Origin: Proteobacteria bacterium SG_bin7
Lineage (GTDB): Bacteria; Bdellovibrionota; Bdellovibrionia; Bdellovibrionales; SG-bin7
DNA length: 64,000 nt
Direction of reading: 5' to 3'
Assembly: GCA_002083485.1 (NCBI GenBank)
Contig: LWDK01000044.1
Coordinates: 12,613-76,612 of the forward strand
Each line of letters opens with the position of its first letter. The stretch's first letter is position 1. The notes below the pieces were generated by a model that worked only from the letters and a program-made list of their open reading frames with translations, did no database searches and was not told where the DNA came from. The translations under genes and the position numbers were made by a program. Shown here piece by piece: positions 21,057 through 46,152 of this stretch.

Positions 21057-21266
21057 TTTCTCTCCTTAGTAAAAAATTTTTATATTACGGAGAAAAAATC
21101 CAGTCCATCGATTTTGATGAGAATGAAAACAATGTAGTATCCAGACACTTTTTGTCTTATTTGATTTATCTGACCCGATATATTCGTAACAAAAATTTAT
21201 AGTACGGAAAAAAGCTTTAGTCCAAAGAATTGACGCACCATGGACTGGAAAAAGTCTCAGGCACCT

Positions 21267-21275
21267 TGGTATAAC
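21267..21275 (+). promoter_or_regulatory. Extended -10 element TGgTATAAC; predicted start site would fall at or next to the HAD ATG (leaderless-type)
   Basis: TGGTATAAC ends 7 nt before the ATG at 21283. No SD is present in the intervening cagacaat. Confidence 0.3.
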
Positions 21276-21282
21276 AGACAAT

Positions 21283-22032
21283 ATGACCAAACATCTACAG
21301 TCTGTCGATCACATTTACGATGCCCTCTTAAATGAAATCAAGGAACATAAAACCAAAGGCGAAAATGTCATGGCAGTTTTTGATCTTGATTCTACTCTCA
21401 TCGAAGTCGGCCCGCGCATGACACAAATCCTACGTGACTTTGCCAAGGAAAAAAAACATCTAGGAAAGTATCCCAAAGAATGTCGAATACTCGAAAAATA
21501 CAACCATCACCCCGAAGATTGGGGCATTGAACACTGCATCGAACGCATTGGATTAGCCTCAAGCTCATTTGATTTTTTCAAAGACCTCACTCGCTATTGG
21601 CGTGGAAGGTTTTTTTCTAATGACTACCTTCAGTTTGACGAACCTCTACCTGGTGCCAACGAATTTTTACAGGAACTCCACAAGAACGGAGTACATATTT
21701 CTTATCTAACGGCACGTGAGTCTAAAGCTATGCTTGAAGGAACAGTCCAATCCCTAAAAAAACATGGTTTTCCCTTAGAAGAGAAAAATGAAAACCTCTT
21801 TTTAAAAGAAAAAATGGAAAAGCCAGATCCAGAATTTAAACGCGATATCTTAAAAGACATGGTTAATAATTATGGAAGCGTCTGGTTTTTTGAGAACGAA
21901 CCTATCAATCTTCGCGTTGTTCGCGAAACCTTACCACAAGTCCGCCTAGTCTATATTGACTCGGTTCACTCTGGTCGCGAAGCTCCACCTACGGAGCTTG
22001 CAGTAATTACTCATTTCCAGCGCCAGAAGTAA
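21283..22032 (+). CDS. HAD-superfamily hydrolase
   Basis: Motif I VFDLDSTLIE (DxD) and HAD-like later motifs (YLTARES; FFENEP). Confidence 0.7.
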   Translation: MTKHLQSVDHIYDALLNEIKEHKTKGENVMAVFDLDSTLIEVGPRMTQILRDFAKEKKHLGKYPKECRILEKYNHHPEDWGIEHCIERIGLASSSFDFFKDLTRYWRGRFFSNDYLQFDEPLPGANEFLQELHKNGVHISYLTARESKAMLEGTVQSLKKHGFPLEEKNENLFLKEKMEKPDPEFKRDILKDMVNNYGSVWFFENEPINLRVVRETLPQVRLVYIDSVHSGREAPPTELAVITHFQRQK

Positions 22033-24691
22033 TTGACTTTAGCGCTAGCTCACGAATTTTGACGCATCGATCATCTTCCTGATGAGCAACTAAAAACGCT
22101 TTTTTAACCGGATATTCAAGATTCCTTTCTTTTACGACGAAACCTTCAATACGCTCTCTACTTTCTTTCGTACATTGCCGTGGTATTAGATTTTCGGCAA
22201 AGTCCTCCACAAAATCTCGGTCACGAGCTCCATCTCTGTTAGCGACAACTTCAAAATATGTCTGGACATGCGGTTCAAATAATTCTTCTTGCCCCGGAAG
22301 ATTCAAATTTCGCATAATCGTTCTCATTTGGGCCATTGACATTTTCGACTTCGTTTTAGGTTCCAGTAATTTTGTGAGCCACTCAGTTTTTACAGTCGCA
22401 TCGGGAATAGCAGCTGCGCATCCAAGCGCATAACGTTGACCTCTTTCGGATTTGTCATGTTTTGATTCCTGAGCGATTAGACCTTTACAACTTGCGCTCC
22501 CCCTTCGGCACAATGTCCAAATCATTTGCCAACGCAAATCAGGATCGATTACTTTATTTATTTTTAGTTGCTCTTGCAAACTCAGAAGTCCGCCTGGTGA
22601 CTGGGCAACTTTAGCAGCCATGGTAAGCCAGAATTTATTTTCGTCGCTGCCTGGTTTGCTATTTTCAATTTGTTTTAAGAAATAGCCTTCAAAATAAACC
22701 ACCAGCTCATTCTTTTCCACCGATGCTGGCATATAGTAGAGGGCGCTACCTACTTCTGACCACCAACGGCCAACAAGATTTTCTAAAACCTTTTTAAGTA
22801 TCATTAAATCCTTTTCACTGCTAATTTGCGCCTTTACCGCCTGTGCATACTTTTGGATTGGCATTTTCTGATCAATAACCATATTCCATAAATTATTCCA
22901 AACCATTAAGCGCATAAGTGGATCATTTACTTGGCTCAAATTCTGAAATACAAACTCTAAGCTACGTGGATCAAAATAAGTTTTAAGATAAGCGTAGTCG
23001 TTATAATTAGGAAAAATCAGTTTCGGGCACTTCCTGCCAGCAAGCCCTTTTAACTCATACGAGCTGCCCTCCATTGTAACATCAATCACTTCACTAATTC
23101 GCAAATTTTTCCCCTCACCATCAAAAACTCCCACTTGAAATGCATGTGGGCGATAAGAAGAAGTCGCTGATTTTAAACTTAAAGTTGCTGTTCGTACTTT
23201 TTCATTTTCGCAATCTAAATTCACAGTCAAAGAATCAACACCAGCTTCCTGCAACCAAAGCTTCGTCCACGATTCCAAATTATGTCTCGTATGTTCCTGT
23301 AGGGAGTTGATAAAATCTGCTAGGGAAGCATTTTGGAATCCGTATTTCTTTATGTAGTTGCGCACGCCTTTTTGAAAGGCTCCTTTACCAATATAGTAAG
23401 AAAGCTGTTTTACGACGGAGGCGCCCTTACCGTAGGTGATGCCATCAAAAGTTCCACGCGCGTCAGACGTCGAAGTGACGGCTTTGGCTTCAATAGGATG
23501 GGTAGTCACCAACTGGTCTTCCCAATAAGCCCACTGTTTGTCGCTACCGAAGAAGTCACGCCAAATTTCCTTAAACTCAGTTGCTTCAAACTGAGCATGT
23601 GCTGCCATGTAGGTCGCAAAACTTTCGTTTAACCACAAATCATTCCACCACTTCATGGTAACGATATTACCAAACCACATATGCGCCATTTCGTGGAGAA
23701 TTACATTTGAAGCGTCCAATAACTGTTCCCGTGTTGGTTTTGATCGCGAAAAATACCTTTCGTTGAAGGTCACATTCGCAACATTTTCCATAGCCCCAGA
23801 AACTGCTTCGGGAACAACGGTCTGATCATATTTTCCAAACGGATATTCATAGTCGAAATATTTATTGTAGAAATTGAGACCTTGTTTTGTAATTTTAAAC
23901 CAAAACTCGTGATTCACATATTTTGCAAATGACTTACGTGCGAATAACCGCAATGGTAGCTTTCCGTGATGATCATTCCAAACCGTAAATGGTCCCGCTG
24001 CAAGAGAAAATAGATAAGTGCTGACTCGTGGTGAAGTCGCAAAACTCCATCGTTTCGTGCTCCCCTTATTTTTTTTCTTTTGTTCAGCCCCTGTGGAAAC
24101 AACCTTCCAATGGCTCGGAGCTGTGACCGCCAACGTCAACGTGGCCTTCAAATCTGGCTGGTCAAAGCAGGGAAAAAATCGATTCGCATGATAAGGTTCG
24201 AAGTGTGTATAAATATAGGTTTCGCCATCGGCGGGATCTCTGTAGCGATGGAGCCCTACACCGTCACTCGCGTAAGGATGTTGATAAGTGATCTCAACAA
24301 GATTGAGGCCTTTTACTAAAGTACTGCTCGACAAATAAATTCCTGTTCCATCGTAACGGTAATCAGTTATTGGAGTCTTATTAATTTTGATTTTTTCAAC
24401 AGTACCACCATCGAAATCGAAACGTAGCTCATTCGGAACCTCGCTTAAGCTAAATCCAGCTTTCAAAGTGCCAGAAAATTTTTCATCGCGGGAACCAACA
24501 CTAATGTCCAAATCATAGACGACTTCACTTAAGATTTTGCTGCGGGCTCGGGCCTCAGACAGAGTCAATTCATGTTTTATGGATTCTGAGGCAACGTCGG
24601 GAGTTAGGTTATTAATGGTTGGAAAGTTACCAGCAGTTGAACAACCTGCAACCCAAATAAGAATTAGGAATCCTAATACGCGAAGCTTCAT
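22007..24691 (-). CDS. pepN: Aminopeptidase N (M1 family), probable lipoprotein
   Basis: GAMEN motif (VSGAMENV) and zinc site HEMAHMWFGNIVTMKWWNDLWLNESFA (HExxH-18-E). I moved the start to MKLRVLGFLILIWVAGC (ATG at 24691) because GGAGG lies 4 nt upstream and a lipobox follows. Confidence 0.9.
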   Translation of the reverse strand: MKLRVLGFLILIWVAGCSTAGNFPTINNLTPDVASESIKHELTLSEARARSKILSEVVYDLDISVGSRDEKFSGTLKAGFSLSEVPNELRFDFDGGTVEKIKINKTPITDYRYDGTGIYLSSSTLVKGLNLVEITYQHPYASDGVGLHRYRDPADGETYIYTHFEPYHANRFFPCFDQPDLKATLTLAVTAPSHWKVVSTGAEQKKKNKGSTKRWSFATSPRVSTYLFSLAAGPFTVWNDHHGKLPLRLFARKSFAKYVNHEFWFKITKQGLNFYNKYFDYEYPFGKYDQTVVPEAVSGAMENVANVTFNERYFSRSKPTREQLLDASNVILHEMAHMWFGNIVTMKWWNDLWLNESFATYMAAHAQFEATEFKEIWRDFFGSDKQWAYWEDQLVTTHPIEAKAVTSTSDARGTFDGITYGKGASVVKQLSYYIGKGAFQKGVRNYIKKYGFQNASLADFINSLQEHTRHNLESWTKLWLQEAGVDSLTVNLDCENEKVRTATLSLKSATSSYRPHAFQVGVFDGEGKNLRISEVIDVTMEGSSYELKGLAGRKCPKLIFPNYNDYAYLKTYFDPRSLEFVFQNLSQVNDPLMRLMVWNNLWNMVIDQKMPIQKYAQAVKAQISSEKDLMILKKVLENLVGRWWSEVGSALYYMPASVEKNELVVYFEGYFLKQIENSKPGSDENKFWLTMAAKVAQSPGGLLSLQEQLKINKVIDPDLRWQMIWTLCRRGSASCKGLIAQESKHDKSERGQRYALGCAAAIPDATVKTEWLTKLLEPKTKSKMSMAQMRTIMRNLNLPGQEELFEPHVQTYFEVVANRDGARDRDFVEDFAENLIPRQCTKESRERIEGFVVKERNLEYPVKKAFLVAHQEDDRCVKIRELALKSITSGAGNE

Positions 24692-24714
24692 ATGACCTCC
24701 AAAAATCATTCGAA

Positions 24715-24744
24715 TTGACATCATAGCGACTCATTTTCTAAGTT
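24715..24744 (+). promoter_or_regulatory. Candidate sigma-70 promoter for the yfbR-like gene (TTGACA-18-TAAGTT), very short leader
   Basis: Perfect -35 TTGACA at 24715-24720, an 18-nt spacer and TAAGTT at 24739-24744. The ATG at 24754 has no SD. Confidence 0.4.
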
Positions 24745-24753
24745 ACAAACAAG

Positions 24754-25344
24754 ATGAGCCATTTTTTTGCCTACCTATCGCGCATGAAACACATTCAACG
24801 TTGGGGGCTCATGCATTGCACCCATAAAGAAAATGTCCAAGAGCACAGTCTACAAGTTGCGGTTATTGCCCACTCACTGGCCCTGATAAAGAATAAATAT
24901 TTTGGCGGTACAGTGAATCCCGAGCGCGTCGCTCTTCTAGGAGTTTTTCATGATGCCACGGAGGTAATTACGGGTGATTTGCCGACACCAGTCAAATATT
25001 TCAGTTCTGATATTAAACAGGCCTATAAGAATATTGAAAAGTTTGCAGCTGATCGCCTGCTCGAACTGATTCCGAAAGAATTTCAAGAGGAGTACAAGAC
25101 ACTTCTCTATAGCCAAGATAATTCCGAACACTTGGCCCTCGTCAAGGCAGCAGATGCGATCTCAGCATATATTAAATGTTGTGAGGAGCAAGCAACAGGC
25201 AACGCTGAGTTTGGGAGAGCGAAAAGAGCAATTGAGGAAAAAATTAAATCTACGGCAAGTCCTGAAGTAAAATACTTTATGCAGCACTTTGTACCGAGCT
25301 TTTCGCTTTCACTTGATGAAATCAGCGCCCCGCTAAATATTTAG
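24754..25344 (+). CDS. yfbR: 5'-deoxynucleotidase, YfbR-like HD-domain phosphohydrolase
   Basis: SHFFAYLSRMKHIQRWGLM...ENVQEHSLQVAVIAHSLA...FHDATEVITGDLPTPVKYF is near-colinear with E. coli YfbR as I remember it. Confidence 0.85.
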   Translation: MSHFFAYLSRMKHIQRWGLMHCTHKENVQEHSLQVAVIAHSLALIKNKYFGGTVNPERVALLGVFHDATEVITGDLPTPVKYFSSDIKQAYKNIEKFAADRLLELIPKEFQEEYKTLLYSQDNSEHLALVKAADAISAYIKCCEEQATGNAEFGRAKRAIEEKIKSTASPEVKYFMQHFVPSFSLSLDEISAPLNI

Positions 25345-25727
25345 CTTTTACACTTCTGCATGGTTTGAGGGTCAAAATAATCGCCAACCCCGCCGATGTT
25401 CTCAAGATTCGTAAAACCCCGTTTTTCTAAAATGGCGATGACTTTTCTGGAGCGATTTCCAGAACGACAATAAACTATAATTTTTTTTGACTTGTCGTTA
25501 CCAACTAAAGCCGAGACCCGAGCGATTGCGCTATCAGGAGCGTTCACAAATTCATCAATTGAAATAAGATTGGCACCCTTGACATAGCCATTACAGGCTT
25601 CTTGGCGAACGTCAATTACAGGAGTTCCTTCTGAAATTGCCGTTCGAGCTAATTCAACAGTAGCCTTCTCGTTAGCTCCCGCATGCGTAGAAAAAAACAA
25701 AAACAAAGAAAAAATAAATTTTTTCAC
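25341..25727 (-). CDS. Rhodanese-like domain protein (exported)
   Basis: Signal peptide and active-site loop VYCRSGNRS. Confidence 0.8.
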   Translation of the reverse strand: MKKFIFSLFLFFSTHAGANEKATVELARTAISEGTPVIDVRQEACNGYVKGANLISIDEFVNAPDSAIARVSALVGNDKSKKIIVYCRSGNRSRKVIAILEKRGFTNLENIGGVGDYFDPQTMQKCKS

Positions 25728-25736
25728 GAGTGCCCC

Positions 25737-26435
25737 TTAAAAAAGAAAGCTCGCCAAAATCGAAAACGAGCTCATTTTAACTTCACCATTTTTGACGTTA
25801 ACATTTTTGTTCGTCAAGAGACCTGTCAACAAAAAGCGTGTTTCGGGGCTTATTGGCCAAGAATAACCACCACCAAGGTCAATTCCGCCCCCACGTGCAG
25901 AACCCATTGTAGTTGAAATGCTGCCATCGCTCAAAGTTTCAGTGGCTGATGCAATTCCAACATCACCGCGCAAAAACCATCCGTCGCCAATATTGGCACC
26001 AAGAAAATGTTGGATACTGTAGGCTAACAAACTTTGTGAAAGACTATAACTTGACCCAGTACCATAAGTATAGGAATCACCTTGGCTACAAACTATTATC
26101 CCATGTATCGTGTGATGCGAACTCCACGGCCAATAAAATCCTAAAATGTCGACAGCTACCTGGGTGCGCGGACCCGCGGTGAAAACCGAACTTAATTGAG
26201 GTTCGTACTTGTTGCTAGAAAGCCCTACGCCCCACTGTGTATACCAAGTTTCGTTCTTTGAGGGCAACTGCGCATCCAGTTGCTCGTACACGGCAGTTTT
26301 CTCGGGCGCCTCCGGTTTTTTTATTTCTTTTTCTTCTGACACTGTCTTTGCCTTTTCCCAAGTTTGTTCCTGTGCGAAAACACTTACAGAAAAAACCAAA
26401 ATAAAAATAAGTGTAGATGTAGAAGAAAGTTTCAT
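25737..26435 (-). CDS. Exported protein, probable small OM beta-barrel
   Basis: Signal peptide ...SVSVFA|QE, a G/S/T/Y-rich strand pattern and C-terminal ...ILASFLF. Confidence 0.5.
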   Translation of the reverse strand: MKLSSTSTLIFILVFSVSVFAQEQTWEKAKTVSEEKEIKKPEAPEKTAVYEQLDAQLPSKNETWYTQWGVGLSSNKYEPQLSSVFTAGPRTQVAVDILGFYWPWSSHHTIHGIIVCSQGDSYTYGTGSSYSLSQSLLAYSIQHFLGANIGDGWFLRGDVGIASATETLSDGSISTTMGSARGGGIDLGGGYSWPISPETRFLLTGLLTNKNVNVKNGEVKMSSFSILASFLF

Positions 26436-26476
26436 TTTTAGACTCTCCCAGTGATAAAGGAAAGTCTAAAGTCTAC

Positions 26477-26689
26477 TTAAATTCCTTTACGAGTCAACGC
26501 ACTGACTTCTTTGTTCTTGCGGCCCTGGCGCAAATCGCTCTTCACGACCTCACTCATTATTTTTTCCTCCAGGCCATTCCAGTATTCTTCCTCGACAGGA
26601 AGGCCTTCGTTTTTAGATAGTTTTACGGCAAGTTGCCACTGCCACTCCCAATTATCGAGCTCATTTGATGAATCATTACCTAGACTCAT
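26477..26689 (-). CDS. Small Trp/acidic-rich protein translationally coupled to the ECF sigma factor (candidate anti-sigma)
   Basis: ATGA overlap with the sigma gene stop. 70 aa with no TM segment and no HxxxCxxC motif. The call rests on position only. Confidence 0.35.
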   Translation of the reverse strand: MSLGNDSSNELDNWEWQWQLAVKLSKNEGLPVEEEYWNGLEEKIMSEVVKSDLRQGRKNKEVSALTRKGI

Positions 26690-27351
26690 TGTTCTATCCC
26701 TTCTGTGTGGCTCACGAATCCAAGGCTCGAGACCACATCTTTTCTATTAAATAAAGTTAATAAATTCTTATCCGAAATCCTACTCTTCAATTTTATTAAA
26801 GCATGACGATAATTGGCCTTTGCTGTGTCGTAGGGGCATTCCATAATCTGAGCAACTTCCTTGAAACTCAGATCTTCATACACCCGCAACACCAACGCCA
26901 TCTTCTGTCTTTCGGGAAGCTCATCAATTGCTTGATTCAAAGCCTCTTTTAAGTCCACGCCCTCTAAATCGCTCTCAGCTTCTGGCGAAACTGCGATATT
27001 AACTTTGCTAATATCGAGAGCTTCATGCCTTTTTCCCCGCAATTTATTTTTTGCAGTGTTAATTGAAATTTGAAACAACCAACTTTTAAAGGCGGCTCTT
27101 CCTTCGAAGAGATGTAGCTTCTGATATGTTTTCAAGAAAGTTTCTTGCACTACATCCTCCGCGGTTTCAAGATCTCGCACAATTCGCAAGGCCATCCGCA
27201 GAACCGATTTTTGGTATTTACGCACCAAAATCGAAAAAGCGGCTCGATCACCTTGGCGAATCCGAGCTATGATCGTTAAGTCTGAAGCGTTTTCTTCAGA
27301 ACCGATGCTTAGACCCGACTTGTCCTTAGTCGGGTTAATATCTCTTTTCAT
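26686..27351 (-). CDS. ECF-type RNA polymerase sigma-70 family factor
   Basis: Region 2 (FSILVRKYQKSVLRMALRIVRDLETAEDVVQETFLKTY) and region 4 HTH (ELPERQKMALVLRVYEDLSFKEVAQIMECPYDTAKANYRHALIKLK). Confidence 0.85.
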   Translation of the reverse strand: MKRDINPTKDKSGLSIGSEENASDLTIIARIRQGDRAAFSILVRKYQKSVLRMALRIVRDLETAEDVVQETFLKTYQKLHLFEGRAAFKSWLFQISINTAKNKLRGKRHEALDISKVNIAVSPEAESDLEGVDLKEALNQAIDELPERQKMALVLRVYEDLSFKEVAQIMECPYDTAKANYRHALIKLKSRISDKNLLTLFNRKDVVSSLGFVSHTEGIEQ

Positions 27352-27561
27352 AACTTCCTCCGCACCTAAAAGTGGTTAATAATGTTGAGGAATTTCGTGT
27401 TGTGCTTCACTGCTGAGGCCTAGGGACTTCATGTCCCCGGGGCATCCCTCTGCGCGTAGTTATTTCAAATGATATGCCTGAAAAAAATGCACCACTTGAA
27501 CGCCAGCTACAATACAAAGTGCCTGACACTCTTTTCCGTCTACATCGTGTCAATATGGTTT

Positions 27562-27837
27562 CTATTCGCCCCACCTTAAAGTGCCTGAGACTTTTTCCAG
27601 TCCATAGCGCGTTATTGCAGCCCGCCCTACTTCCTTTACATGTCTGAAATCGAGAGTCACAATCTTGTATTTCTCAAGTCCGCCAGTAAGTGCTTGGATT
27701 GAGAGCGGGAAACTAGCCTGTTTTGGTTTTAAGGTGACGTAGACATCACCGCGATCAAATTCATAATCATCGTGGGTATATTCGCGAAACAAGTCCTTTA
27801 AAATTTTTCGGGACCTGACTTTTAATTTCAAACTCAA
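27562..27837 (-). CDS. Hypothetical 91-aa protein
   Basis: ORF only. It has a TTG start with no visible SD and no recognisable motif. Confidence 0.3.
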   Translation of the reverse strand: MSLKLKVRSRKILKDLFREYTHDDYEFDRGDVYVTLKPKQASFPLSIQALTGGLEKYKIVTLDFRHVKEVGRAAITRYGLEKVSGTLRWGE

Positions 27838-27944
27838 TTCGTTAGGTAATTGTAAACATCTAAAATTAAATTTTTAGGAGTTTACAGTTGAGTTTTACTA
27901 ATGGGCTGTATTTTTACCGGGCCCAGAACTGGCAAACTTTCTAA

Positions 27945-29306
27945 TTACAAATCTACCCGTTGCTGTTCAACCACGACTTTTCGCCCATTAACCTCATAAA
28001 CCCCTGGTTCTAGCAAAATATGAAAATTCCCATTCATATCAGCTTTATAAGTATAGTCCGTCCAAGATTTTTTTGCCGAAAGATTCTTAACGACAACTTC
28101 TTGTTCTCCACTAACTTTTCCACGTACTCCTGAACCATCCAGCAAATCTAGTAATGTCATCCATGCGACTCGCAATTTCTTCACTGTTTTATCGCGATAT
28201 TGTGAGTAACTCGGCTGAAACTCTTGATTCATCTCGATCACAAACGGCATCACACCAAAATCCGAATACAGCCAGTCAATATCACCGCCATCAACTGAAT
28301 ACAAAAGCTCCCAAGGAGTTCCAGAAGTATAAGTATCTCTACCGCCGCCATCCACCGGAATCTGCTTAGCGATTCCGCCACCCACACGCATAAAGAAGTC
28401 TTTATGAGCAGCATGCTGTCCCTGACAACTCATCGGATAAAGAACTAGTTCGCTATAAGAATGAAGCGATAAGCTTGCGACTGGACGAATATTTTTTATT
28501 AACTCAACAATCGCGTTCGTTTCATTTTCTGATCCCGCACTTGGACCACGATAGTCATCAGCGCCTTTATTTCCACTGGAACCGCGACACTGCCCCCACA
28601 TATATGGATAGTTTCTGTTGATATCAACACCATACCCTCGCGAAACATTTTTTCGCCACCAATTGTTGTTTGTCCACACAACATTATTGCCGTCGGGATT
28701 TACCATAGGCACCGCATAGATTTCGTTTTGATCTACCCAGTGAGTAACTTTTCTATCAGCTCCATAATTTGCTAGTAGATACTCAATCATGTCTAGAGGA
28801 ACTTCTGGACTCATAACTTCGCGCGCGTGGTGCATACCATTGATATAAAAAGTCGGCTTTTTAAATTTCGAAAAACTATTTTTATTCGAAATTTTCAGCG
28901 CCCAGATATCTCTGCCTTGCTCGGTTTTACCAAGACTCATCAAGCTGGTGAGGTTGGGATATTTATCCGCAAATCCTCTTAAAATCGACTCGATTTCACT
29001 TGGATCCTTGAATTCTGTGTCAAGACTCGCTCCAATTAGACTTTCTTTCGTAATAGCGAAGCCTTCATTTCTCAAAATTCTTAAATCTTCGCGACTTACA
29101 ACCAGACCGACTTCACTGGCTTTCAAGCTTACACCAGCGATATCGAAATGACGATCTCGAAACTTTTGTAGCTCATCCTTAAATTTAGTGGCTTCTATTT
29201 TTATTTTGACATGAATTTTTTCTTCAGTTTGTGGGGAAAAACTCCCAGCTGCTCCCAATAACAAAGCCGTTCCCATTGCTGCCATGACCATCTTTCTGAT
29301 GTCCAT
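27945..29306 (-). CDS. M14 family zinc carboxypeptidase, exported
   Basis: Signal peptide, zinc-binding INGMHHAREVMSPE (HxxE) and a later ...SLHSYSELVLYP (His ligand region). Confidence 0.85.
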   Translation of the reverse strand: MDIRKMVMAAMGTALLLGAAGSFSPQTEEKIHVKIKIEATKFKDELQKFRDRHFDIAGVSLKASEVGLVVSREDLRILRNEGFAITKESLIGASLDTEFKDPSEIESILRGFADKYPNLTSLMSLGKTEQGRDIWALKISNKNSFSKFKKPTFYINGMHHAREVMSPEVPLDMIEYLLANYGADRKVTHWVDQNEIYAVPMVNPDGNNVVWTNNNWWRKNVSRGYGVDINRNYPYMWGQCRGSSGNKGADDYRGPSAGSENETNAIVELIKNIRPVASLSLHSYSELVLYPMSCQGQHAAHKDFFMRVGGGIAKQIPVDGGGRDTYTSGTPWELLYSVDGGDIDWLYSDFGVMPFVIEMNQEFQPSYSQYRDKTVKKLRVAWMTLLDLLDGSGVRGKVSGEQEVVVKNLSAKKSWTDYTYKADMNGNFHILLEPGVYEVNGRKVVVEQQRVDL

Positions 29307-29326: not shown

Positions 29327-30271
29327 TTACGAAGATTTATGTTTCGTTGTTTGATTTCTACCGTTATTTTTTGACCGATACAAAGCCTCGTCAGCAGCTT
29401 TAAATAAATCATCCCACCCGGCCATAGTTGCGCTTTTTTCAGCTACGCCTAATGAAATCGTAATAGGAAGTTTTTTACCTTCATATTCAAAAACATGGGT
29501 TTGTACCGCCTGACGAGCGCGTTCCGCAATATCGGCTCCTTGCTGTAAATTACTACCGTGGAGAATCACAACAAATTCTTCACCACCGAAGCGTGCAAAG
29601 AAATCATCGCCGCGAATCACTTTGGCTTTCACAAGGTCCGCAAGGGTTTTTAACACGTAATCTCCGGCCAAGTGCCCAAAGTTATTATTCACCTGCCTGA
29701 AGTGATCTAAATCAAACGCAATCGCCGTCAAAGGAAATTGCATTAGTCCCGATCGTTTAAATGCCTCTTTACCATGCTCCAAGAGAGCTGCCTTATTAAA
29801 TATCTGTGTGAGCCCATCGATTTGGCCACGATCATATGTGCTCTTTGTAGTCATGGATTCAATGTTACCGCTCTCTAAAAATTTAAAGATGACATTTCCA
29901 GTCTTTATCTGATCATTGTTTTTCAATTTTACCAGAGTAAGTGGTGGCACAACTCTTCCGTTAATGACAGTTTTATTTGTCGACTCTAAATCCATTATGG
30001 AAACTTCTTTTCCAGAAAACACAACCTTGGCGTGTGACTTACTAACACTTTTATCGTCGACAAACACGTGCGAGCGCGGGTCTCTACCAACAACAACGTC
30101 TCCCGCCGTAAGCGGCCACTGCTTACCAATGTAAGAATTAGGACCGACCAATAATACTAAACTCGGAGGAGCATTCGTCGCTTCAGCGAGACGACCTTTG
30201 AAGGTGTCACTCGAGATAACGCTTGTCTTATCTCCCGCTGTTATTTCGTCGTCTTTAGGATCTTCGCTCAT
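29327..30271 (-). CDS. FHA domain-GGDEF diguanylate cyclase (DgcB-like architecture)
   Basis: FHA region VVVGRDPRSHVFVDDKSVSKSHAKVVF...STNKTVINGRVV. GGDEF domain with active site RFGGEEF, I-site RGDD and the canonical base-specifying Asp (FGHLAGDYVL). Confidence 0.85.
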   Translation of the reverse strand: MSEDPKDDEITAGDKTSVISSDTFKGRLAEATNAPPSLVLLVGPNSYIGKQWPLTAGDVVVGRDPRSHVFVDDKSVSKSHAKVVFSGKEVSIMDLESTNKTVINGRVVPPLTLVKLKNNDQIKTGNVIFKFLESGNIESMTTKSTYDRGQIDGLTQIFNKAALLEHGKEAFKRSGLMQFPLTAIAFDLDHFRQVNNNFGHLAGDYVLKTLADLVKAKVIRGDDFFARFGGEEFVVILHGSNLQQGADIAERARQAVQTHVFEYEGKKLPITISLGVAEKSATMAGWDDLFKAADEALYRSKNNGRNQTTKHKSS

Positions 30272-30311: not shown

Positions 30312-31541
30312 TTAGTTTTTTAAGATTTGTTTAGCTAGTCTTTTTCCTAGTTCCACACCGGGCTGGTCAAAAGCATTAATATTTAGATGCTCGCCTAGAC
30401 CTGCGACCACAACTTGAAACAACATAAAAAGAGCCGCTAATTCTTTTTCTCTAATTTGACCCACACGCAGACTCAAACTTTGCACACCCATTTGCTCTAA
30501 GCCCTGTGCTGTCGCGCAGGCTTGCGCTGCAAAAACTCGACCAAGGTTTTTGTTTTGAAAACCTAAACCACTCTCAAAAATATCCTTTTTTAGCTGTGTA
30601 CCATAATCTTCACTTTCCGAGGCGCGCAAAAACCAAATGAATTTGTCCCGCGGCCCCTCGGCAATTTGTTGGAGTACCGAGTGTTGGTCACAACTCCCTG
30701 TCAATGGAATCGGCGTACTCGCGCGAGCCGCAGGATTATTTTTGCGATCGACCTTTTTCGCCAAAGACTCTGCCCATAACTGCTGGTACCATAAACCAAA
30801 ATTCCTAAGAGCATCACAATAAGTCCACAAACAGGTAATCCATTCTTCGCGCCTAAAACTCGCAATACTTTGAGCAATCAACTGAACCGTGACGTCTTGT
30901 TTTTGGATCCCCCAAAGCGCCCCTTGACGAATGTCTTCTAAATTTAAACCCATAAACGCCGCTGGCAATAATCCAACGGGGGTTAAAACAGAAAACCTGC
31001 CACCCACATCCACCGGAATTTCAAGAATGGGAACATTATTTTTTCCTGCCCAGTTTGTTAAAATATTTTCTCGGGCCTCAGAAATGACAGTACACTGCTT
31101 CGCAAATTCCTTTTTTGTTTTCTTCTTTAACCACTGCGCTGCAAAATTTCCCATTGCCAGTGTTTCCACAGTATTTCCACTTTTTGAAACAAGTACGAAA
31201 TGGGTTTTTTGTGGTTTTTTTATTTGCTCTAATTGTTTCCAAAAATAATTCCCATCAATATTATCTATAAACTCAACGGTAAACTTCTTAGCCTTAAAAC
31301 CTAACACTTCCACGATAGCTTTTCCACCCATTGAACTGCCACCAATACCAAATACTACCATGTGATCAAATTTCTTCTGAATCTCTTTAGCCCGCTTTTT
31401 ACTCGTCTCGAATAAGTATTTTCTTTCAGGGATTTGATGGAACCCAATATCTGTTCTTTTTAAAAATTTTTCCAGAGCAGCTTCAGCCGCCTTGAGATCA
31501 CCAGCTTTTGGTTGACTGGTAGAATGAGTCAAGAAAATCAT
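30312..31541 (-). CDS. pgi: Glucose-6-phosphate isomerase (short bacterial type)
   Basis: SIS-domain motifs VVFGIGGSSMGGKA and VLVSKSGNTVET. Size is about 410 aa. Confidence 0.8.
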   Translation of the reverse strand: MIFLTHSTSQPKAGDLKAAEAALEKFLKRTDIGFHQIPERKYLFETSKKRAKEIQKKFDHMVVFGIGGSSMGGKAIVEVLGFKAKKFTVEFIDNIDGNYFWKQLEQIKKPQKTHFVLVSKSGNTVETLAMGNFAAQWLKKKTKKEFAKQCTVISEARENILTNWAGKNNVPILEIPVDVGGRFSVLTPVGLLPAAFMGLNLEDIRQGALWGIQKQDVTVQLIAQSIASFRREEWITCLWTYCDALRNFGLWYQQLWAESLAKKVDRKNNPAARASTPIPLTGSCDQHSVLQQIAEGPRDKFIWFLRASESEDYGTQLKKDIFESGLGFQNKNLGRVFAAQACATAQGLEQMGVQSLSLRVGQIREKELAALFMLFQVVVAGLGEHLNINAFDQPGVELGKRLAKQILKN

Positions 31542-31555
31542 TGAAGCTCTCCAAG

Positions 31556-32635
31556 TTACGCAATAACGACATCTTCTTCAATTCGATGATAACCACGCCA
31601 CTCTTTCAGGCGCCCGCGAGGTCGCGAGCCGTCGTCAGGATACTCAACCATAACATAAGTAAGCTTAGTGATTTTGCCAAGGGATGGCATGTCGAGTGAA
31701 GTTAATTCTGTCCAGGTACCAGTATTGAAATATTCCATGTCATTTCCCCACTGACGATATTGGTAGACATGTGTATGACCAAAAATACAAGTGTGCACTC
31801 GTTCATCCATCAGAATTTTTTTTGCTTGCTCACTGAGATCTGGAAAAACTGCGCTTTCTAGAAGCACCTCGACAACTTTGCGAACAGTGACCTGTCGTCG
31901 GGGGTCTCTAAAAAATAATATAGATGCAAAATAAAGTATCAACTGGACAACGCCCTTTAAGAAAAACATCGTTTCTGAAAACAAAGCCCAGCGAAGCATC
32001 TTGCTAAACGGACGAATTTTATCAACATAAGGATAATTGTTTTTCACTTTCAACACGAAATCGACAAAAAAGTGGGAACCGAGTGGCAAATTTAATATCG
32101 GCTCAGGCAAATCTTTCTTCAAAAAGAATCTCTTTGGGTCAAGTCGGTTGGCCGCCTCATACATATGCCCGTGCTCAATATGAACACCATCAAAGAAATA
32201 AACGATGTTTCGATATTTAATTTTTTTACCGATGACTTCATCCAAATAATTTCGGCACGCTGGCCAAAACATTCCTTGGTCATGGTTACCAACAACATAG
32301 GTAACTTGGTTTCCCTCTCGAGCGGCAAACTCCTTTAACGCATTAAAGAACTGGGGATGCCCCTTCACGATAGCCTTCATTACTGAAAGAGTTACTCCTT
32401 CAGTCAATACCGTTAAAAAATGACCGCGGTAATCGCATTGAAGAAAGTTAAAAATGTCGCCATTCAAAATTAATTCAATTTGGTAGTCCCGATACTCACC
32501 GGACATGTAGTAATTGATAAACTCGACAAACTTTTCAGCGTAATAGAATTCTTCTAGTGAATTTAAAGCCCCACCCTCCAGTATTCTCCCTTTACCAAGG
32601 TGCAAATCGCTAACGACAAGTTTCATCTTTTTCAT
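31556..32635 (-). CDS. Calcineurin-like metallophosphoesterase (LpxH-like motif set) with C-terminal extension
   Basis: Motifs VVSDLHLG, LNGDIFNF, VVGNHD, HIEHGH and FGHTH. Lies 12 nt downstream of the GGDEF gene with a GGGGGAAG SD. Confidence 0.75.
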   Translation of the reverse strand: MKKMKLVVSDLHLGKGRILEGGALNSLEEFYYAEKFVEFINYYMSGEYRDYQIELILNGDIFNFLQCDYRGHFLTVLTEGVTLSVMKAIVKGHPQFFNALKEFAAREGNQVTYVVGNHDQGMFWPACRNYLDEVIGKKIKYRNIVYFFDGVHIEHGHMYEAANRLDPKRFFLKKDLPEPILNLPLGSHFFVDFVLKVKNNYPYVDKIRPFSKMLRWALFSETMFFLKGVVQLILYFASILFFRDPRRQVTVRKVVEVLLESAVFPDLSEQAKKILMDERVHTCIFGHTHVYQYRQWGNDMEYFNTGTWTELTSLDMPSLGKITKLTYVMVEYPDDGSRPRGRLKEWRGYHRIEEDVVIA

Positions 32636-32647
32636 AAAACTTCCCCC

Positions 32648-33664
32648 TTAGCTCGCTATATAAATACAGTTGCGTCCCGAGTTTTTACTTTGGTACATGG
32701 CCTGATCCGCAAGACTAATCAGTGAGTCTCTAGATTCCGCATGCTCCGGAAAAGCGGCCACTCCGATACTTGTGGTAATCTTATAAGTTCTTCCATCGAC
32801 GATAAAATCTTTTCTGGAGATTAAAGCACGAATTCTCTCAGCAGCGACGTTAGCGTTAACAGCGTTTGCTCCCACAAGCATTAGTAGATACTCATCTCCA
32901 CCATAGCGAATACCGACATCATTGCCGCGAATGTTCGTTTTTAACATTTGCCCAAGTTGCGAAAGAATTTTTGACCCAATGATATGGCCGTGTTGATCAT
33001 TCACTTCTTTAAAATGGTCGATATCCAAAAATAATACTGAAAAACAGTTTTTTTGTCGCCGCGAAAGAGAAATCTGTCGGTCGAGCGCCATAGCTAAATA
33101 ACGTTGGTTAAACAAACCCGTCAAGTCATCAACATATGCCAACTCTCTCGCTCTTACAAAGCGAAGCGCTTCCGTCAAATTACGGGCAACGACTTGCCGC
33201 ACGTAAACGATACTTTCAAAAACCCAGGTCGTTTTCCAGTCTTTACGTGGCTTTTCAATTAAAATATCACCTATTTTTTCCTGATTCACATGACCATAGA
33301 TGGGCCATATCAGAAATTCACTGTCCGTTGTCTTGATGTGAACAAAATCATTTAGATCAAATTGTATAAGGCCCTTCGCTAAACCAGCAATGAGGGAATT
33401 CAGCTCACCTTGCGATTTCGATCCAGTGGTTAAATATTGAGGACAGGCTTCACCCAAACGCGCGCGCGGAATTTGAATGCTGCCTTGCTCAAATTGAGTC
33501 CGAATCATGACCTCAAGGCGTTCGCCCAAAAACCAATACACCTCTTGGGCCTCAAATTCATTTTGAAAGAGCTTCATAGTTTTCAATACAACTTCTCGGC
33601 AGTTGTCGAGCTCAAGATCAGATTCAAAATTTAGTAGCTTTTGCAATACTAGTATGTCGCCCAT
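32648..33664 (-). CDS. GAF-like N-terminal domain + GGDEF cyclase with Hypr-type Ser substitution
   Basis: GGDEF domain LFLDIDHFKEVNDQHGHIIGSKIL aligns without gaps to PleD DIDFFKKINDTFGHDIGDEVL. Ser231 (codon 32972-32974) replaces the guanine-specifying Asp. Active site RYGGDEY, I-site RGND. Confidence 0.8.
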   Translation of the reverse strand: MGDILVLQKLLNFESDLELDNCREVVLKTMKLFQNEFEAQEVYWFLGERLEVMIRTQFEQGSIQIPRARLGEACPQYLTTGSKSQGELNSLIAGLAKGLIQFDLNDFVHIKTTDSEFLIWPIYGHVNQEKIGDILIEKPRKDWKTTWVFESIVYVRQVVARNLTEALRFVRARELAYVDDLTGLFNQRYLAMALDRQISLSRRQKNCFSVLFLDIDHFKEVNDQHGHIIGSKILSQLGQMLKTNIRGNDVGIRYGGDEYLLMLVGANAVNANVAAERIRALISRKDFIVDGRTYKITTSIGVAAFPEHAESRDSLISLADQAMYQSKNSGRNCIYIAS

Positions 33665-33676
33665 GCCACTACTACC

Positions 33677-34429
33677 TTATTTTACTTTCTTTAATGGGGC
33701 TGCACTTGCGTTGTCTTCTTCTTCGAGTAGCGATAGCGCCAAACGCATCGCCTTCACCACGCGACGGATTTTCTCACCTTCTTTTTCGATGCGCTCACTT
33801 AGGCCACCTTCGCGCGAACGATGTTGTTCAACATCTAAGTTCATCTGATCGATGCGACGCTTGAGATCCATAATAATTTCATCCTTATTGCGAATAACAG
33901 CGGCACCTTCCATTTTCATGATCTCGAGCCGATTTTCAAGTTCACGTTCACGGACCCGGATCTTTTTTAGATCTGTGGCTAAGCGCATTTCTAGCTCATC
34001 GACCTTGTTCACCAAACGACCCATCTCGCGATCTTTGGCTTGAATAGATTCTTCCAATAATCTTTTCTCATCAGAATAATTTTCTTGCAAATCGCTAAGT
34101 TGTCGAGTGGCTTTTTCTGAACGCGTCGTTAACTCTTCCACGCGTTGATTCAGTGTCCGTCCTGCAGCAATCAATTGTTCGTTCTCGCGGCGTAAACGAT
34201 CAATTTCTTCTTCTAGTTCTAAAATTCTTGTCTGTGCGACCCGTAAATTTTCAGATTGGGCAAGCGCGGCTTCGGTGGTCGGCAACTGGCCAGAGGGAAA
34301 TGGATTTCGCACCGGATTTAATCCGGTTTTAAAGTCAGGAAGCGCATCGGAAGATTTCTGTTGGTCTTTACCCAACAATGCATCCACGATTCCCATCGCA
34401 AATTTACCGCTGTTTTTATTATCAGCCAT
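33677..34429 (-). CDS. Coiled-coil protein, unknown function (first gene of the GGDEF operon)
   Basis: E/R/L-rich heptad sequence through most of its 250 aa. There is a 12-nt gap to the GGDEF gene. Confidence 0.5.
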   Translation of the reverse strand: MADNKNSGKFAMGIVDALLGKDQQKSSDALPDFKTGLNPVRNPFPSGQLPTTEAALAQSENLRVAQTRILELEEEIDRLRRENEQLIAAGRTLNQRVEELTTRSEKATRQLSDLQENYSDEKRLLEESIQAKDREMGRLVNKVDELEMRLATDLKKIRVRERELENRLEIMKMEGAAVIRNKDEIIMDLKRRIDQMNLDVEQHRSREGGLSERIEKEGEKIRRVVKAMRLALSLLEEEDNASAAPLKKVK

Positions 34430-34627
34430 CTACGTAAAATATCGGAAATTCAGGGAGTATTCTTAATTTTCAGTGACACTTTCAAGGCGTAACTGGGCCT
34501 TTGATGAGTCCATATTTAGGAAAAATTAGACCATCGTCTCCTCGACTAGCATTTCTACAGAACCAATATCCGGCGATCTTTTAAATAAAGCGCCATCTCG
34601 GTGAACTTTTGCTGAATAACGGCGGCC

Positions 34628-44049: not shown

Positions 44050-46152
44050 TCACGCGGCGTTTCTAGAGTTCAAAAAACTACTGAGTTGAACGCCCAGTTC
44101 ATTGATATCACCTTCAGCAGTGTTAACAAGTTCACCTATATTTTCCCAAGAAAGATTTTCGGCGTGCTCGATAACGTCAAGCTTTTTACAAATGTCATTT
44201 GCAAAGAAGTTGGCGATAGTTCCACGTAACGTATGCGCTGATATTCGCAAGAGTTTGGCATCTTTTTTAGTAACAGCAGTTTGCAAATTTCCAAGAAGAT
44301 TCGGAACTGTTTTTAAATAGCCGTTTATAAATTTTATCAAAATTTCTTCGTCGCCGGCAAAATGCTGCAACAAAAGATCTTTATTCAAGTGAACTGTTTT
44401 TTGAGTCTGAACCTTATTGGTCTTGGCTTCTTCGTTAGCCATCGTTGTATTCGAACGAACCCTTAAAATCGCCTCAGCTAGGGAGATCACTGTAAAGGGT
44501 TTCGGAACAAAGTCATCCATACCGGCATCACGACAATACTTTTGATCTTTCATTGTGGCACTCGCGGTCAAAGCTATAATCCAAGGCTGTCTCTCTACCG
44601 CTAGTCGCCGTCGCAAGGTTTTAGTCGTAATATAACCATCCATTTCCGGCATCTGCCCGTCCATAAAAATAACGTCGTAAAATTTAGTATCAATGGCATC
44701 TAAGACTTCAAGTCCGTTTCCAACAGCATCCACGCGATAGCCTAGCATTTCCAGATACTGCTTTGCTAAAAGCTGGTTCGTAGAGTTATCGTCGGCAACT
44801 AAAATACTGTAGGGCTTCTTCCTGGCAAGATCTCTATCAAATTCAAAGCCATCAACCTCACCAGCATTTTTGCGATTTCCTTTTCTGGCTGAAACCTTAA
44901 ATGAAAAGGTCGTCCCAACCCCGAGCTGACTTTCAAAACCGATTGACCCGCCCATGGATTCGCAAATTCCCTTACAGATTACAAGGCCAAGACCAGTGCC
45001 ACCATATTTGCGTGTGGTCGATGCATCAACCTGAGTAAAGGATTGAAATAGCTTGTCCTTCACATCATCTGGGATGCCAATTCCAGAGTCTTTTATCGAG
45101 ACATTGATTTCAATTTTATCGTCCGATACCTCTTTAATAGAAGTAATAATGCAAACTTCTCCTTTTGGAGTAAATTTTATTGCGTTACCCACAAGATTAT
45201 TTAAAACCTGTCTTAAACGCGTTGAGTCCGTTAGAACCCAAAAGTCGTCAGGAATACTTGATTTCAGTGAGAGTCCTATTCCTTTATCTTTGGCGCGCGA
45301 GTTAAAAAGGATGATGACATCTCGTAAAAGCATATTCACGTTAAAATTAACATCTTCCAGTATTAATTTACCAGCTTCCATTTTTGAGAAATCCAAAATG
45401 TCATTTATTAAAGTTAAGAGTGTGTCTCCGCAGGTCGTCATTATATTTAAATAGTTTTTACCATCGTCTGAAAGGTTTTCTTTACGTAAGAGATTTGCCA
45501 TTCCTAAAATTCCGTTAATGGGTGTGCGAATTTCATGACTGACATTGGCAATAAACTGCGATTTGACATTCGCGGCTCGGTCGAGCTGAAGGTTTTTTTC
45601 TTTGAGCGTGTCTTCGATCTGTTCTCGCTCTAGATATTCGCGAGCTTGTGTACGGATTTGCAAAATCAAAAATAAGTAGTACGTAATAAGCATAAGTGCT
45701 AATGGCTCACCGGCAGAATGGGTTGCACTTAAAAAAAAAGGCGGTAATAACAGAAAGGTCAAAAAAAGCACCGCCCCGACAAAACTAGGAACCAAGGCTG
45801 TGAGTGCCGCTGCGGCTACCCCACAAGTCACAAGCAACAAAACTAATGTCGATGAATGTTGAATTCCATATTGATGAATTGCAAAGGAACAGAAACCACC
45901 CCATCCGAATGCAATCAAAGCCAATTGGATAAAAAATATCCGACTCTTAAAAATTCCGAAACGCAATAGTCGGGTCACATTTACAATTACAATGAGAGCA
46001 ATAAATGAGTGCGCAACTAACGGAAAATCTCTTTCAAGATCCGTAAAAAAATAAACCACGGTCGCTAGAACCATATGCCCAAAGGAACTACTGACAGCTC
46101 TTTTTGCGAGTTCTTTTTTGGATCTCGGAGAAATTGAAAAAAATGCCGACAT
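44050..46152 (-). CDS. Hybrid sensor histidine kinase / response regulator with C-terminal HPt domain
   Basis: Multi-TM N-terminus. HisKA SHEIRTPINGILGM. HATPase (DSGIGIP, GGTGLGL). REC (ILVADDNSTNQ...FMDGQMPEMDG). HPt (SAHTLRGTIANF). Confidence 0.9.
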   Translation of the reverse strand: MSAFFSISPRSKKELAKRAVSSSFGHMVLATVVYFFTDLERDFPLVAHSFIALIVIVNVTRLLRFGIFKSRIFFIQLALIAFGWGGFCSFAIHQYGIQHSSTLVLLLVTCGVAAAALTALVPSFVGAVLFLTFLLLPPFFLSATHSAGEPLALMLITYYLFLILQIRTQAREYLEREQIEDTLKEKNLQLDRAANVKSQFIANVSHEIRTPINGILGMANLLRKENLSDDGKNYLNIMTTCGDTLLTLINDILDFSKMEAGKLILEDVNFNVNMLLRDVIILFNSRAKDKGIGLSLKSSIPDDFWVLTDSTRLRQVLNNLVGNAIKFTPKGEVCIITSIKEVSDDKIEINVSIKDSGIGIPDDVKDKLFQSFTQVDASTTRKYGGTGLGLVICKGICESMGGSIGFESQLGVGTTFSFKVSARKGNRKNAGEVDGFEFDRDLARKKPYSILVADDNSTNQLLAKQYLEMLGYRVDAVGNGLEVLDAIDTKFYDVIFMDGQMPEMDGYITTKTLRRRLAVERQPWIIALTASATMKDQKYCRDAGMDDFVPKPFTVISLAEAILRVRSNTTMANEEAKTNKVQTQKTVHLNKDLLLQHFAGDEEILIKFINGYLKTVPNLLGNLQTAVTKKDAKLLRISAHTLRGTIANFFANDICKKLDVIEHAENLSWENIGELVNTAEGDINELGVQLSSFLNSRNAA

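Follow-up and report, generated by a model that had tools for sequence, protein, structure and literature searches.

A probable Hypr-type GGDEF cyclase with a GAF-like predicted sensor fold in the dgcB gene array of uncultured Bdellovibrio relatives

Introduction

What does a GGDEF protein make when the aspartate that would read the guanine base is replaced by serine? This question is raised by a gene at positions 32648..33664, on the minus strand, of a 64,000-nucleotide stretch of contig LWDK01000044.1 from Proteobacteria bacterium SG_bin7; we refer to the whole stretch as the window. The product of 338 amino acids (aa) is A4S09_04535 of this organism (100% match) and carries the database label 'hypothetical protein'. 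A first-pass annotation of the DNA proposed that it is a GGDEF enzyme of the hybrid promiscuous (Hypr) type, which makes cGAMP (3',3'-cyclic GMP-AMP), and in this paper we describe what its sequence, predicted structure, relatives and gene neighbourhood say about that proposal.

Hypr-type proteins are about 0.17% of GGDEF domains (PMC9140294). They are rare but well described, and are known in a receiver-GGDEF (Rec-GGDEF) form, represented by GacA and Bd0367, and in a GAF-GGDEF form, represented by GacB. The novelty implied by the first-pass annotation was therefore too high, since GacB of Myxococcus xanthus and Bd0367 have both been characterised; the protein described here adds one more to a known enzyme class. 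For the Bdellovibrionota, our literature search found no paper tying Hypr enzymes to the phylum other than those on the already characterised Bd0367 system.

Results

Specificity residue and active site

The features of the gene and its product are as follows, in window coordinates.

32648..33664, minus strand: probable Hypr-type GGDEF gene, 338 aa, ATG start, Pfam GGDEF match
33215..33664, minus strand: N-terminal sensor-like domain, residues 1-150, predicted GAF-like alpha/beta fold, without a Pfam match
33137..33211, minus strand: long linker helix, residues 152-176, from the sensor domain to the GGDEF domain (DSSP on the AlphaFold model)
32669..33139, minus strand: GGDEF catalytic domain, residues 176-332 (Pfam PF00990, E 7e-43)
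33104..33106, minus strand: Gln187 codon CAA (in FNQRYL), cross-dimer position equivalent to GacA Y304 (alignment)
32972..32974, minus strand: Ser231 codon TCA, specificity position equivalent to PleD D344, GacA S348 and Bd0367 S214 (ungapped HMMER alignments)
32918..32929, minus strand: RxxD inhibitory site (I-site), R246-G-N-D249 (RGND), read from the DNA
32888..32902, minus strand: GGDEY active-site motif, residues 255-259 with Asp257 at the centre, read from the DNA
32834-32836, minus strand: second I-site arginine R277, aligned with GacA R393 and Bd0367 R260

The ATG of the gene lies 12 bp past the stop of the upstream gene, and because of this there is no space for a missed N-terminal extension. 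The stretch around the specificity position, read straight from the DNA, is DIDHFKEVNDQHGHIIGSKIL. With HMMER it aligns without gaps to DIDFFKKINDTFGHDIGDEVL of PleD and to DLDFFKGVNDTHGHLVGSQVL of GmGacA, the GacA domain of Geobacter metallireducens (6D9M), which places Ser231 on PleD D344 and GacA S348, and Asn222 on PleD N335 and GacA N339. The serine that the first-pass annotation had put at the PleD D344 position is thus indeed there, as are the GGDEY active site and the RxxD motif that it had reported, the latter ending five residues ahead of GGDEY.

Ser231 is invariant in A1, our alignment of 44 homologous sequences. On either side of it D214, D216, K219, N222, D223, G226, H227 and G230 are invariant as well, and because these residues flank the serine on both sides a shift in register is impossible. 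The residues that do not vary across the 44 homologues also include R253, G255, G256, D257, E258, D320 and K327, and the I-site residues R246, D249 and R277. Since the serine is invariant in A1 and is found in all 44 members of the family defined below by the N-terminal domain, it is neither a chance substitution nor a sequencing error.

The catalytic set and the full I-site are intact in the window protein (D214, N222, D223, K327, E258, R246xxD249 and R277), and this bears on the idea that the GGDEF domain is catalytically dead and uses its I-site to act as a receptor for cyclic dinucleotides or as a scaffold. Degenerate GGDEF receptors do exist, such as Bdellovibrio CdgA, and the I-site of the window protein is intact. 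However, the metal-binding Asp214, the GGDEY motif with its general base Glu258, Lys327 and Asn222 are all present and invariant in the family. The structural study of GacA furthermore explains by its 'Goldilocks' model that Ser-type enzymes need GGDE[F/Y] and that only serine with GGEEF is inactive (PMC6456294), so that the combination found here is the active one. A dead domain appears highly improbable to us.

Placement of the GGDEF domain among Hypr enzymes

Searched against all PDB sequences, the window protein has its best match in 6D9M (GmGacA), the sole solved Hypr GGDEF domain, with 154 bits and E 4e-44; PleD follows about 50 bits behind (105 bits, E 5e-29). Over the GGDEF domain the identity is 45.7% to GmGacA, 37.9% to PleD and 35.4% to Bdellovibrio DgcB. 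Our homologue search covered 5.8 billion proteins, and we inspected the specificity residue in the best 120 matches. Serine is found at this position in 68 of them and, among the 64 best-ranked homologues with a readable motif (ranks 1-66), in all but one. Asp-type homologues, mostly with GGEEF, become frequent only at lower ranks.

The serine goes together with two further residues. In canonical enzymes the cross-dimer residue, Y304 in GacA, is an arginine (PMC6456294). Hypr enzymes that have kept this arginine make more c-di-GMP (cyclic di-GMP; PMC6456294), and those with Tyr, Ser, Ala or Gln make mainly cGAMP (PMC6456294). We counted the residue combinations in 121 aligned GGDEF domains, among them 75 Ser-type and 44 Asp-type. 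GGDE[F/Y] occurs in all 75 Ser-type domains against 8 of the Asp-type, arginine at the cross-dimer site in none against 32, and GGEEF in none against 36. The window protein has GGDEY, as the 'Goldilocks' rule demands, and Gln187 in place of the arginine, two Hypr signatures that go beyond those named in the first-pass annotation. Together with Ser231, every known Hypr sequence hallmark is present.

A distance tree without support values places the protein within the main unbroken block of Ser-type domains, beside the block that holds GmGacA. Taken together, the best structural match, the ranking of homologues and the tree indicate that the 338-aa protein very probably belongs to the Hypr (GacA-type) clade, and the classification as a Hypr-type GGDEF by sequence can be retained. 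We also noticed two proteins, P0091 and P0112, with asparagine at the specificity position and a GGDEF motif. P0091 is closely related to the Ser-type GAF-GGDEF protein P0089.

A small family defined by the N-terminal domain

We searched 1.84 billion representative proteins exhaustively with HMMER, using a profile of the N-terminal domain, and only 41 clusters matched at E<=1e-3. The family is strikingly uniform at the positions discussed above. All 44 members have serine at the specificity site, 43 of the 44 have glutamine at the cross-dimer site (the remaining one has serine), and both GGDE[F/Y] and RxxD are found in 43 of 43, this being for RxxD the number of members readable there.

Two architectures exist in the family. 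The short one, to which the window protein belongs, has 320-361 aa. The long one (P0011-P0014, P0024, P0242-P0277) has 450-474 aa, of which about 130 at the N-terminus are additional; this segment matches Response_reg weakly in 4 of 25 cases, the best at E 6e-4. In the long-form sequences that we inspected by eye the phospho-acceptor aspartate is replaced, often by histidine. Because of this replacement by other residues, the N-terminal segment of the long forms looks like a pseudo-receiver.

All named family members come from metagenome-assembled genomes. A scan of a genome collection with alignment A1 and the pattern D[ILV]DxFKxVND gave neither orthologues nor a taxonomic placement among the matches listed; these were distant GGDEF genes from many phyla, with 29-43% identity in the best segment, mostly in the GGDEF region.

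The fixed glutamine raises the possibility that the pair of Ser and Gln encodes a specificity unlike that of GacA, which has Ser and Tyr, or of Bd0367, and that the main product is another purine dinucleotide, such as c-di-AMP or a product of a non-canonical purine nucleoside triphosphate (NTP). Hypr domains do use purine NTPs of other kinds and are able to form c-di-AMP in vitro (PMC6456294; bioRxiv 10.1101/600031), and a cross-dimer residue that the sub-family has made its own would fit such a change. For the published Gln-type Hypr enzymes, however, cGAMP is reported as the predominant product (PMC6456294, citing Hallberg 2016). The sugar face of the base is read by Asn222, and this residue, like the remainder of the pocket, is as in GacA. 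We therefore consider another main dinucleotide improbable.

The N-terminal sensor domain

The first-pass annotation had described the sensor domain as GAF-like rather than a receiver. The window protein indeed contains no receiver domain and does not belong to the GacA type of Rec-GGDEF proteins. The GAF likeness finds weak support in the predicted fold and none in the sequence. No Pfam family matches residues 1-178 even at E<=10, and the sole sub-threshold GAF match in the family, at E 0.09, is found in a long-form relative.

AlphaFold models the protein with confidence, the predicted local distance difference test score (pLDDT) being 91 when the whole chain is modelled and 87 when only the N-terminal domain is. 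It predicts a helix, a five-strand sheet and a helix, followed by the 25-residue helix (152-176) that leads into the GGDEF domain. In a Foldseek comparison with the PDB, the N-terminal model finds weak matches in numerous GAF domains and in the IclR effector domains related to them, at E of about 1e-3 and template modelling (TM) scores of 0.45-0.56. These matches include 3EEA, the GAF domains of PDE2A/5/6, the GAF domain of the HD-GYP protein 4MCW, NifA and KdpD. The model of the whole protein aligns over its entire length with Dcsbis, which is a GAF-GGDEF protein (4ZMU), and with the PHY-linker-GGDEF portion of a cyclase of the phytochrome kind (5LLW).

Profile comparisons with hhalign show where the sequence similarity lies. 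Compared with the middle part of GacA-like Rec-GGDEF proteins, the N-terminal family gives a probability of 94.8% when the linker helix is included, but of 3.9% once the last 32 columns, which are this helix, are removed. For canonical GAF cores the N-terminal core gives 5.8%. The linker helix (152-176) thus holds most of what the profile shares with GacA-like proteins, and we dropped the idea of sequence homology to the GacA middle domain or to GAF, as the signal is gone without this helix. Because of this collapse, 'GAF-like' in this paper describes a predicted fold and not a shown homology.

Gene array and synteny

The gene stands in an array on the minus strand, whose other members are listed here from upstream to downstream.

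34456..34485, minus strand: promoter-like site in the 198-bp gap 5' of the coiled-coil gene, consensus match only, 9/12
33677..34429, minus strand: gene for a 250-aa coiled-coil protein, upstream of the GGDEF gene, without a domain match, position conserved
31556..32635, minus strand: gene for a 359-aa calcineurin-like metallophosphoesterase, downstream of the GGDEF gene (Pfam Metallophos, E 3e-8)
30312..31541, minus strand: glucose-6-phosphate isomerase (PGI) gene (Pfam PGI, E 1e-33)
29327..30271, minus strand: FHA-GGDEF gene, homologue of DgcB (Bd0742) (Pfam FHA and GGDEF; PDB 6HBZ, E 5e-103)
27945-29306, minus strand: M14 peptidase (carboxypeptidase) gene

With the GGDEF gene in second place the six genes are separated by gaps of 12, 12, 14, 40 and 20 bp, and no terminator-like site lies between the array genes from 34429 down to 27945. 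The FHA-GGDEF gene comes third downstream of the Hypr-type gene and runs in the same direction. Its product is closely homologous to Bdellovibrio bacteriovorus DgcB (Bd0742; 6HBZ), which places the organism among Bdellovibrio-like bacteria. Unlike the Hypr-type protein it is a canonical diguanylate cyclase, its signature residues being Asp (specificity site), Lys (cross-dimer site) and Glu (GGEEF), and its identity to the Hypr-type GGDEF domain is only 32.5%. Its sequences FGHLAGDYVL and GGEEF bear out the earlier statement that the FHA-GGDEF protein of this operon keeps the aspartate.

The order of coiled-coil gene, Ser-type GGDEF gene, metallophosphoesterase gene, in some cases the PGI gene, and dgcB recurs around relatives at identities of 76%, 54% and 46%, and is also found in a Bdellovibrionales genome. 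B. bacteriovorus 109J (L086, AP029059.1 692396-709328) keeps the genes for the coiled-coil protein, metallophosphoesterase, PGI, DgcB and an extracytoplasmic function (ECF) sigma factor, but has no GGDEF gene between the first two, which abut (2 bp). A remnant of the Hypr-type gene in this species was considered and rejected, as the two genes abut and the 448-aa protein found there has no similarity to the window protein.

The coiled-coil gene is always first in the array (L086 4018-5364 in 109J, L083 1407-2888), and the length of its product differs greatly, from 250 aa in the window and 237-264 aa for close relatives to 448 aa for 109J and 493 aa for the Bdellovibrionales genome. The metallophosphoesterase gene is always just upstream of pgi-dgcB, and its product is 67% identical to the counterpart in 109J (L086 5366-6505). 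The metal-binding motifs of this protein are complete (DLHLG, GD, GNHD and GHTH), and searches gave neither a sequence relative in the PDB nor an informative NCBIfam match.

Some genes further away in the window are worth recording. Some 10 kb away from the GGDEF genes, at 44050-46152 on the minus strand, lies the gene for a hybrid histidine kinase of 700 aa (HisKA, HATPase_c, receiver and a weak Hpt). The M14 gene shares a segment of about 10 kb (18993-29306, minus strand) with genes for an M1 aminopeptidase (22007-24724) and an S9 prolyl oligopeptidase (18993-21056), and an ECF sigma factor gene (26686-27351) stands among the three peptidase genes. The three nearby peptidase genes would fit a predatory or proteolytic lifestyle.

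Discussion

Comparison with known systems

The closest structural reference is GacA of Geobacter (GSU1658 / Gmet_1914, 6D9M). The window protein shares with it the serine at the specificity site, GGDE[F/Y], a cross-dimer residue other than arginine, and the RxxD motif with the second I-site arginine, and in both a long helix leads into the GGDEF domain. It differs in that GacA has an N-terminal receiver, of which the window protein has none and its longer relatives only a degenerate pseudo-receiver, and in that the cross-dimer residue is tyrosine in GacA and glutamine here.

GacB of M. xanthus (MXAN_2643) is a GAF-GGDEF Hypr enzyme that is activated by cAMP and inhibited by c-di-GMP, the latter through its I-site (bioRxiv 10.1101/600031). 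The general plan is similar, with a sensor domain of GAF or, here, predicted GAF-like fold followed by a Hypr GGDEF domain with an I-site. However, GacB-like homologues carry Pfam GAF domains (PF01590, PF13185), neither of which matches the N-terminal domain of the window protein, and nothing in the window protein points to the binding of cAMP to which GacB responds.

Bd0367 (DgcA) of B. bacteriovorus is a Hypr GGDEF protein that governs gliding exit from prey (PMC9140294). It belongs to the same phylum and is likewise a Ser-type GGDEF with an I-site, its S214 and R260 corresponding to S231 and R277 of the window protein (PMC9140294), but it is a Rec-GGDEF protein that lacks a middle domain and whose phospho-Asp is canonical. 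Probable Bd0367-type proteins from Bdellovibrionales (P0077, P0080, P0085 and P0101) are Ser-type (DHLFGS) Rec-GGDEF proteins of 326 aa, with methionine at the cross-dimer site, about 43% identity to the window protein in the GGDEF domain and an unrelated locus (L084, L085); in the distance tree they fall outside the main Ser block. We rejected the window gene as an orthologue of Bd0367, as architecture, locus and cross-dimer residue all differ, and the gene therefore represents a second Hypr-type lineage in the phylum. The features that set the window protein apart are the unrecognised sensor domain, the fixed glutamine, the absent or degenerate receiver and the position in the dgcB array.

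Predicted product and mechanism

The explanation that we prefer, to which we give a probability of roughly 0.7, is that the protein is a dimeric Hypr cyclase, predicted to make cGAMP, with inhibition through the I-site and control by the sensor domain. What we say about product, inhibition and sensor function is inferred by analogy with published work on GacA, GacB and Bd0367. The homodimer would bind one NTP per subunit. Ser231, in place of the guanine-specific aspartate, could form hydrogen bonds with adenine or guanine at the Watson-Crick face, and Asp257 of the GGDEY motif would set the distance from Mg2+ to the base that the serine needs. Gln187 of the partner subunit would replace the arginine that favours guanine, leaving no guanine preference. 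Because of these three residues ATP and GTP are predicted to give 3',3'-cGAMP as the major product, with some c-di-GMP, and at cellular ratios of ATP to GTP cGAMP would be the main one. This reading is supported by published exchanges in relatives, as S348D in GacA and S214D in Bd0367 turn these enzymes into c-di-GMP synthases (PMC6456294, PMC9140294). The intact I-site (R246xxD249, R277) would allow feedback or cross-inhibition by c-di-GMP, for instance from the putatively co-transcribed DgcB homologue. The divergent N-terminal domain with its predicted GAF-like fold would set the geometry of the GGDEF dimer through the linker helix upon a ligand signal.

Several points weigh against this explanation. 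The in vitro behaviour of Hypr enzymes is promiscuous, with a product ratio that varies with the levels of ATP and GTP; the Ser/Thr-type proteins Cabther_A1065 and Ddes_1475 yield mostly c-di-GMP. The GAF assignment is weak, given the Foldseek E values of about 1e-3, the missing Pfam match and the loss of the profile match without the linker helix. The proximity of dgcB may not mean functional coupling, as the genes around it mostly have housekeeping roles (RlmN, PfkB kinases, an RfaE-type heptose kinase and PGI) and are syntenic across the phylum. Finally, an Rfam scan of both strands of the 64-kb window found no cGAMP (GEMM-Ib) riboswitch, tRNA or other family at the gathering score, and a motif scan of the window found no HD-GYP gene, so that the window shows no further component of a cGAMP pathway. 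The same motif scan gave no EAL and no PilZ, and a single 'HD' match was rejected, as it is an enoyl-CoA hydratase.

In another view the protein is in practice an ordinary diguanylate cyclase that makes mainly c-di-GMP in the cell, the serine being a tolerated variant in a GGDEF-type site. Some natural Ser/Thr-type GGDEF proteins favour c-di-GMP and all Hypr enzymes make some of it in vitro (PMC6456294), and neither a receptor nor a phosphodiesterase specific for cGAMP was found in the window. However, the Hypr enzymes that lean towards c-di-GMP have arginine at the cross-dimer site, and the family that shares the N-terminal domain has glutamine in 43 of 44 members and arginine in none. Nor would a neutral serine be expected to persist unchanged alongside Gln and GGDE[F/Y] in relatives whose overall identity is as low as about 30%. 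Moreover, the operon already contains a canonical cyclase in the DgcB homologue. We regard this view as unlikely, and the Hypr cyclase remains our preferred explanation. For its product we are somewhat less sure than for the enzyme type: by analogy with the characterised enzymes, 3',3'-cGAMP is probably the main one, with appreciable room for doubt.

A bolder reading would join several steps, namely a Hypr sub-family restricted to Bdellovibrionota, with fixed Ser, Gln and Asp and a unique sensor, the loss of this gene from B. bacteriovorus, and an array that works as a two-messenger circuit. In such a circuit c-di-GMP made by DgcB would shut off cGAMP synthesis via the I-site, the new sensor domain would answer a ligand, possibly derived from prey, and the adjacent metallophosphoesterase might degrade one of the dinucleotides. 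As a joint proposal we consider this doubtful.

Significance

The finding leaves the current understanding of the Hypr enzyme class unchanged and would not surprise specialists, although it does correct the 'hypothetical protein' annotation of A4S09_04535. Signalling by GGDEF-derived cGAMP has been characterised in few organisms, namely Geobacter, Myxococcus and B. bacteriovorus, and in the last of these cGAMP governs the exit from prey. Our results show that a second cyclase of probable Hypr type, of different build and with a fixed sequence signature, is present in uncultured Bdellovibrio relatives. Its gene stands in the array of dgcB, the gene of an invasion-controlling cyclase, and this locus lacks it in the model species. 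Should the enzyme make cGAMP, a wider set of sensor domains would feed into the cGAMP pathway than is known from the characterised systems, and the array would offer a natural case of cross-talk between c-di-GMP and cGAMP inside one set of neighbouring genes.

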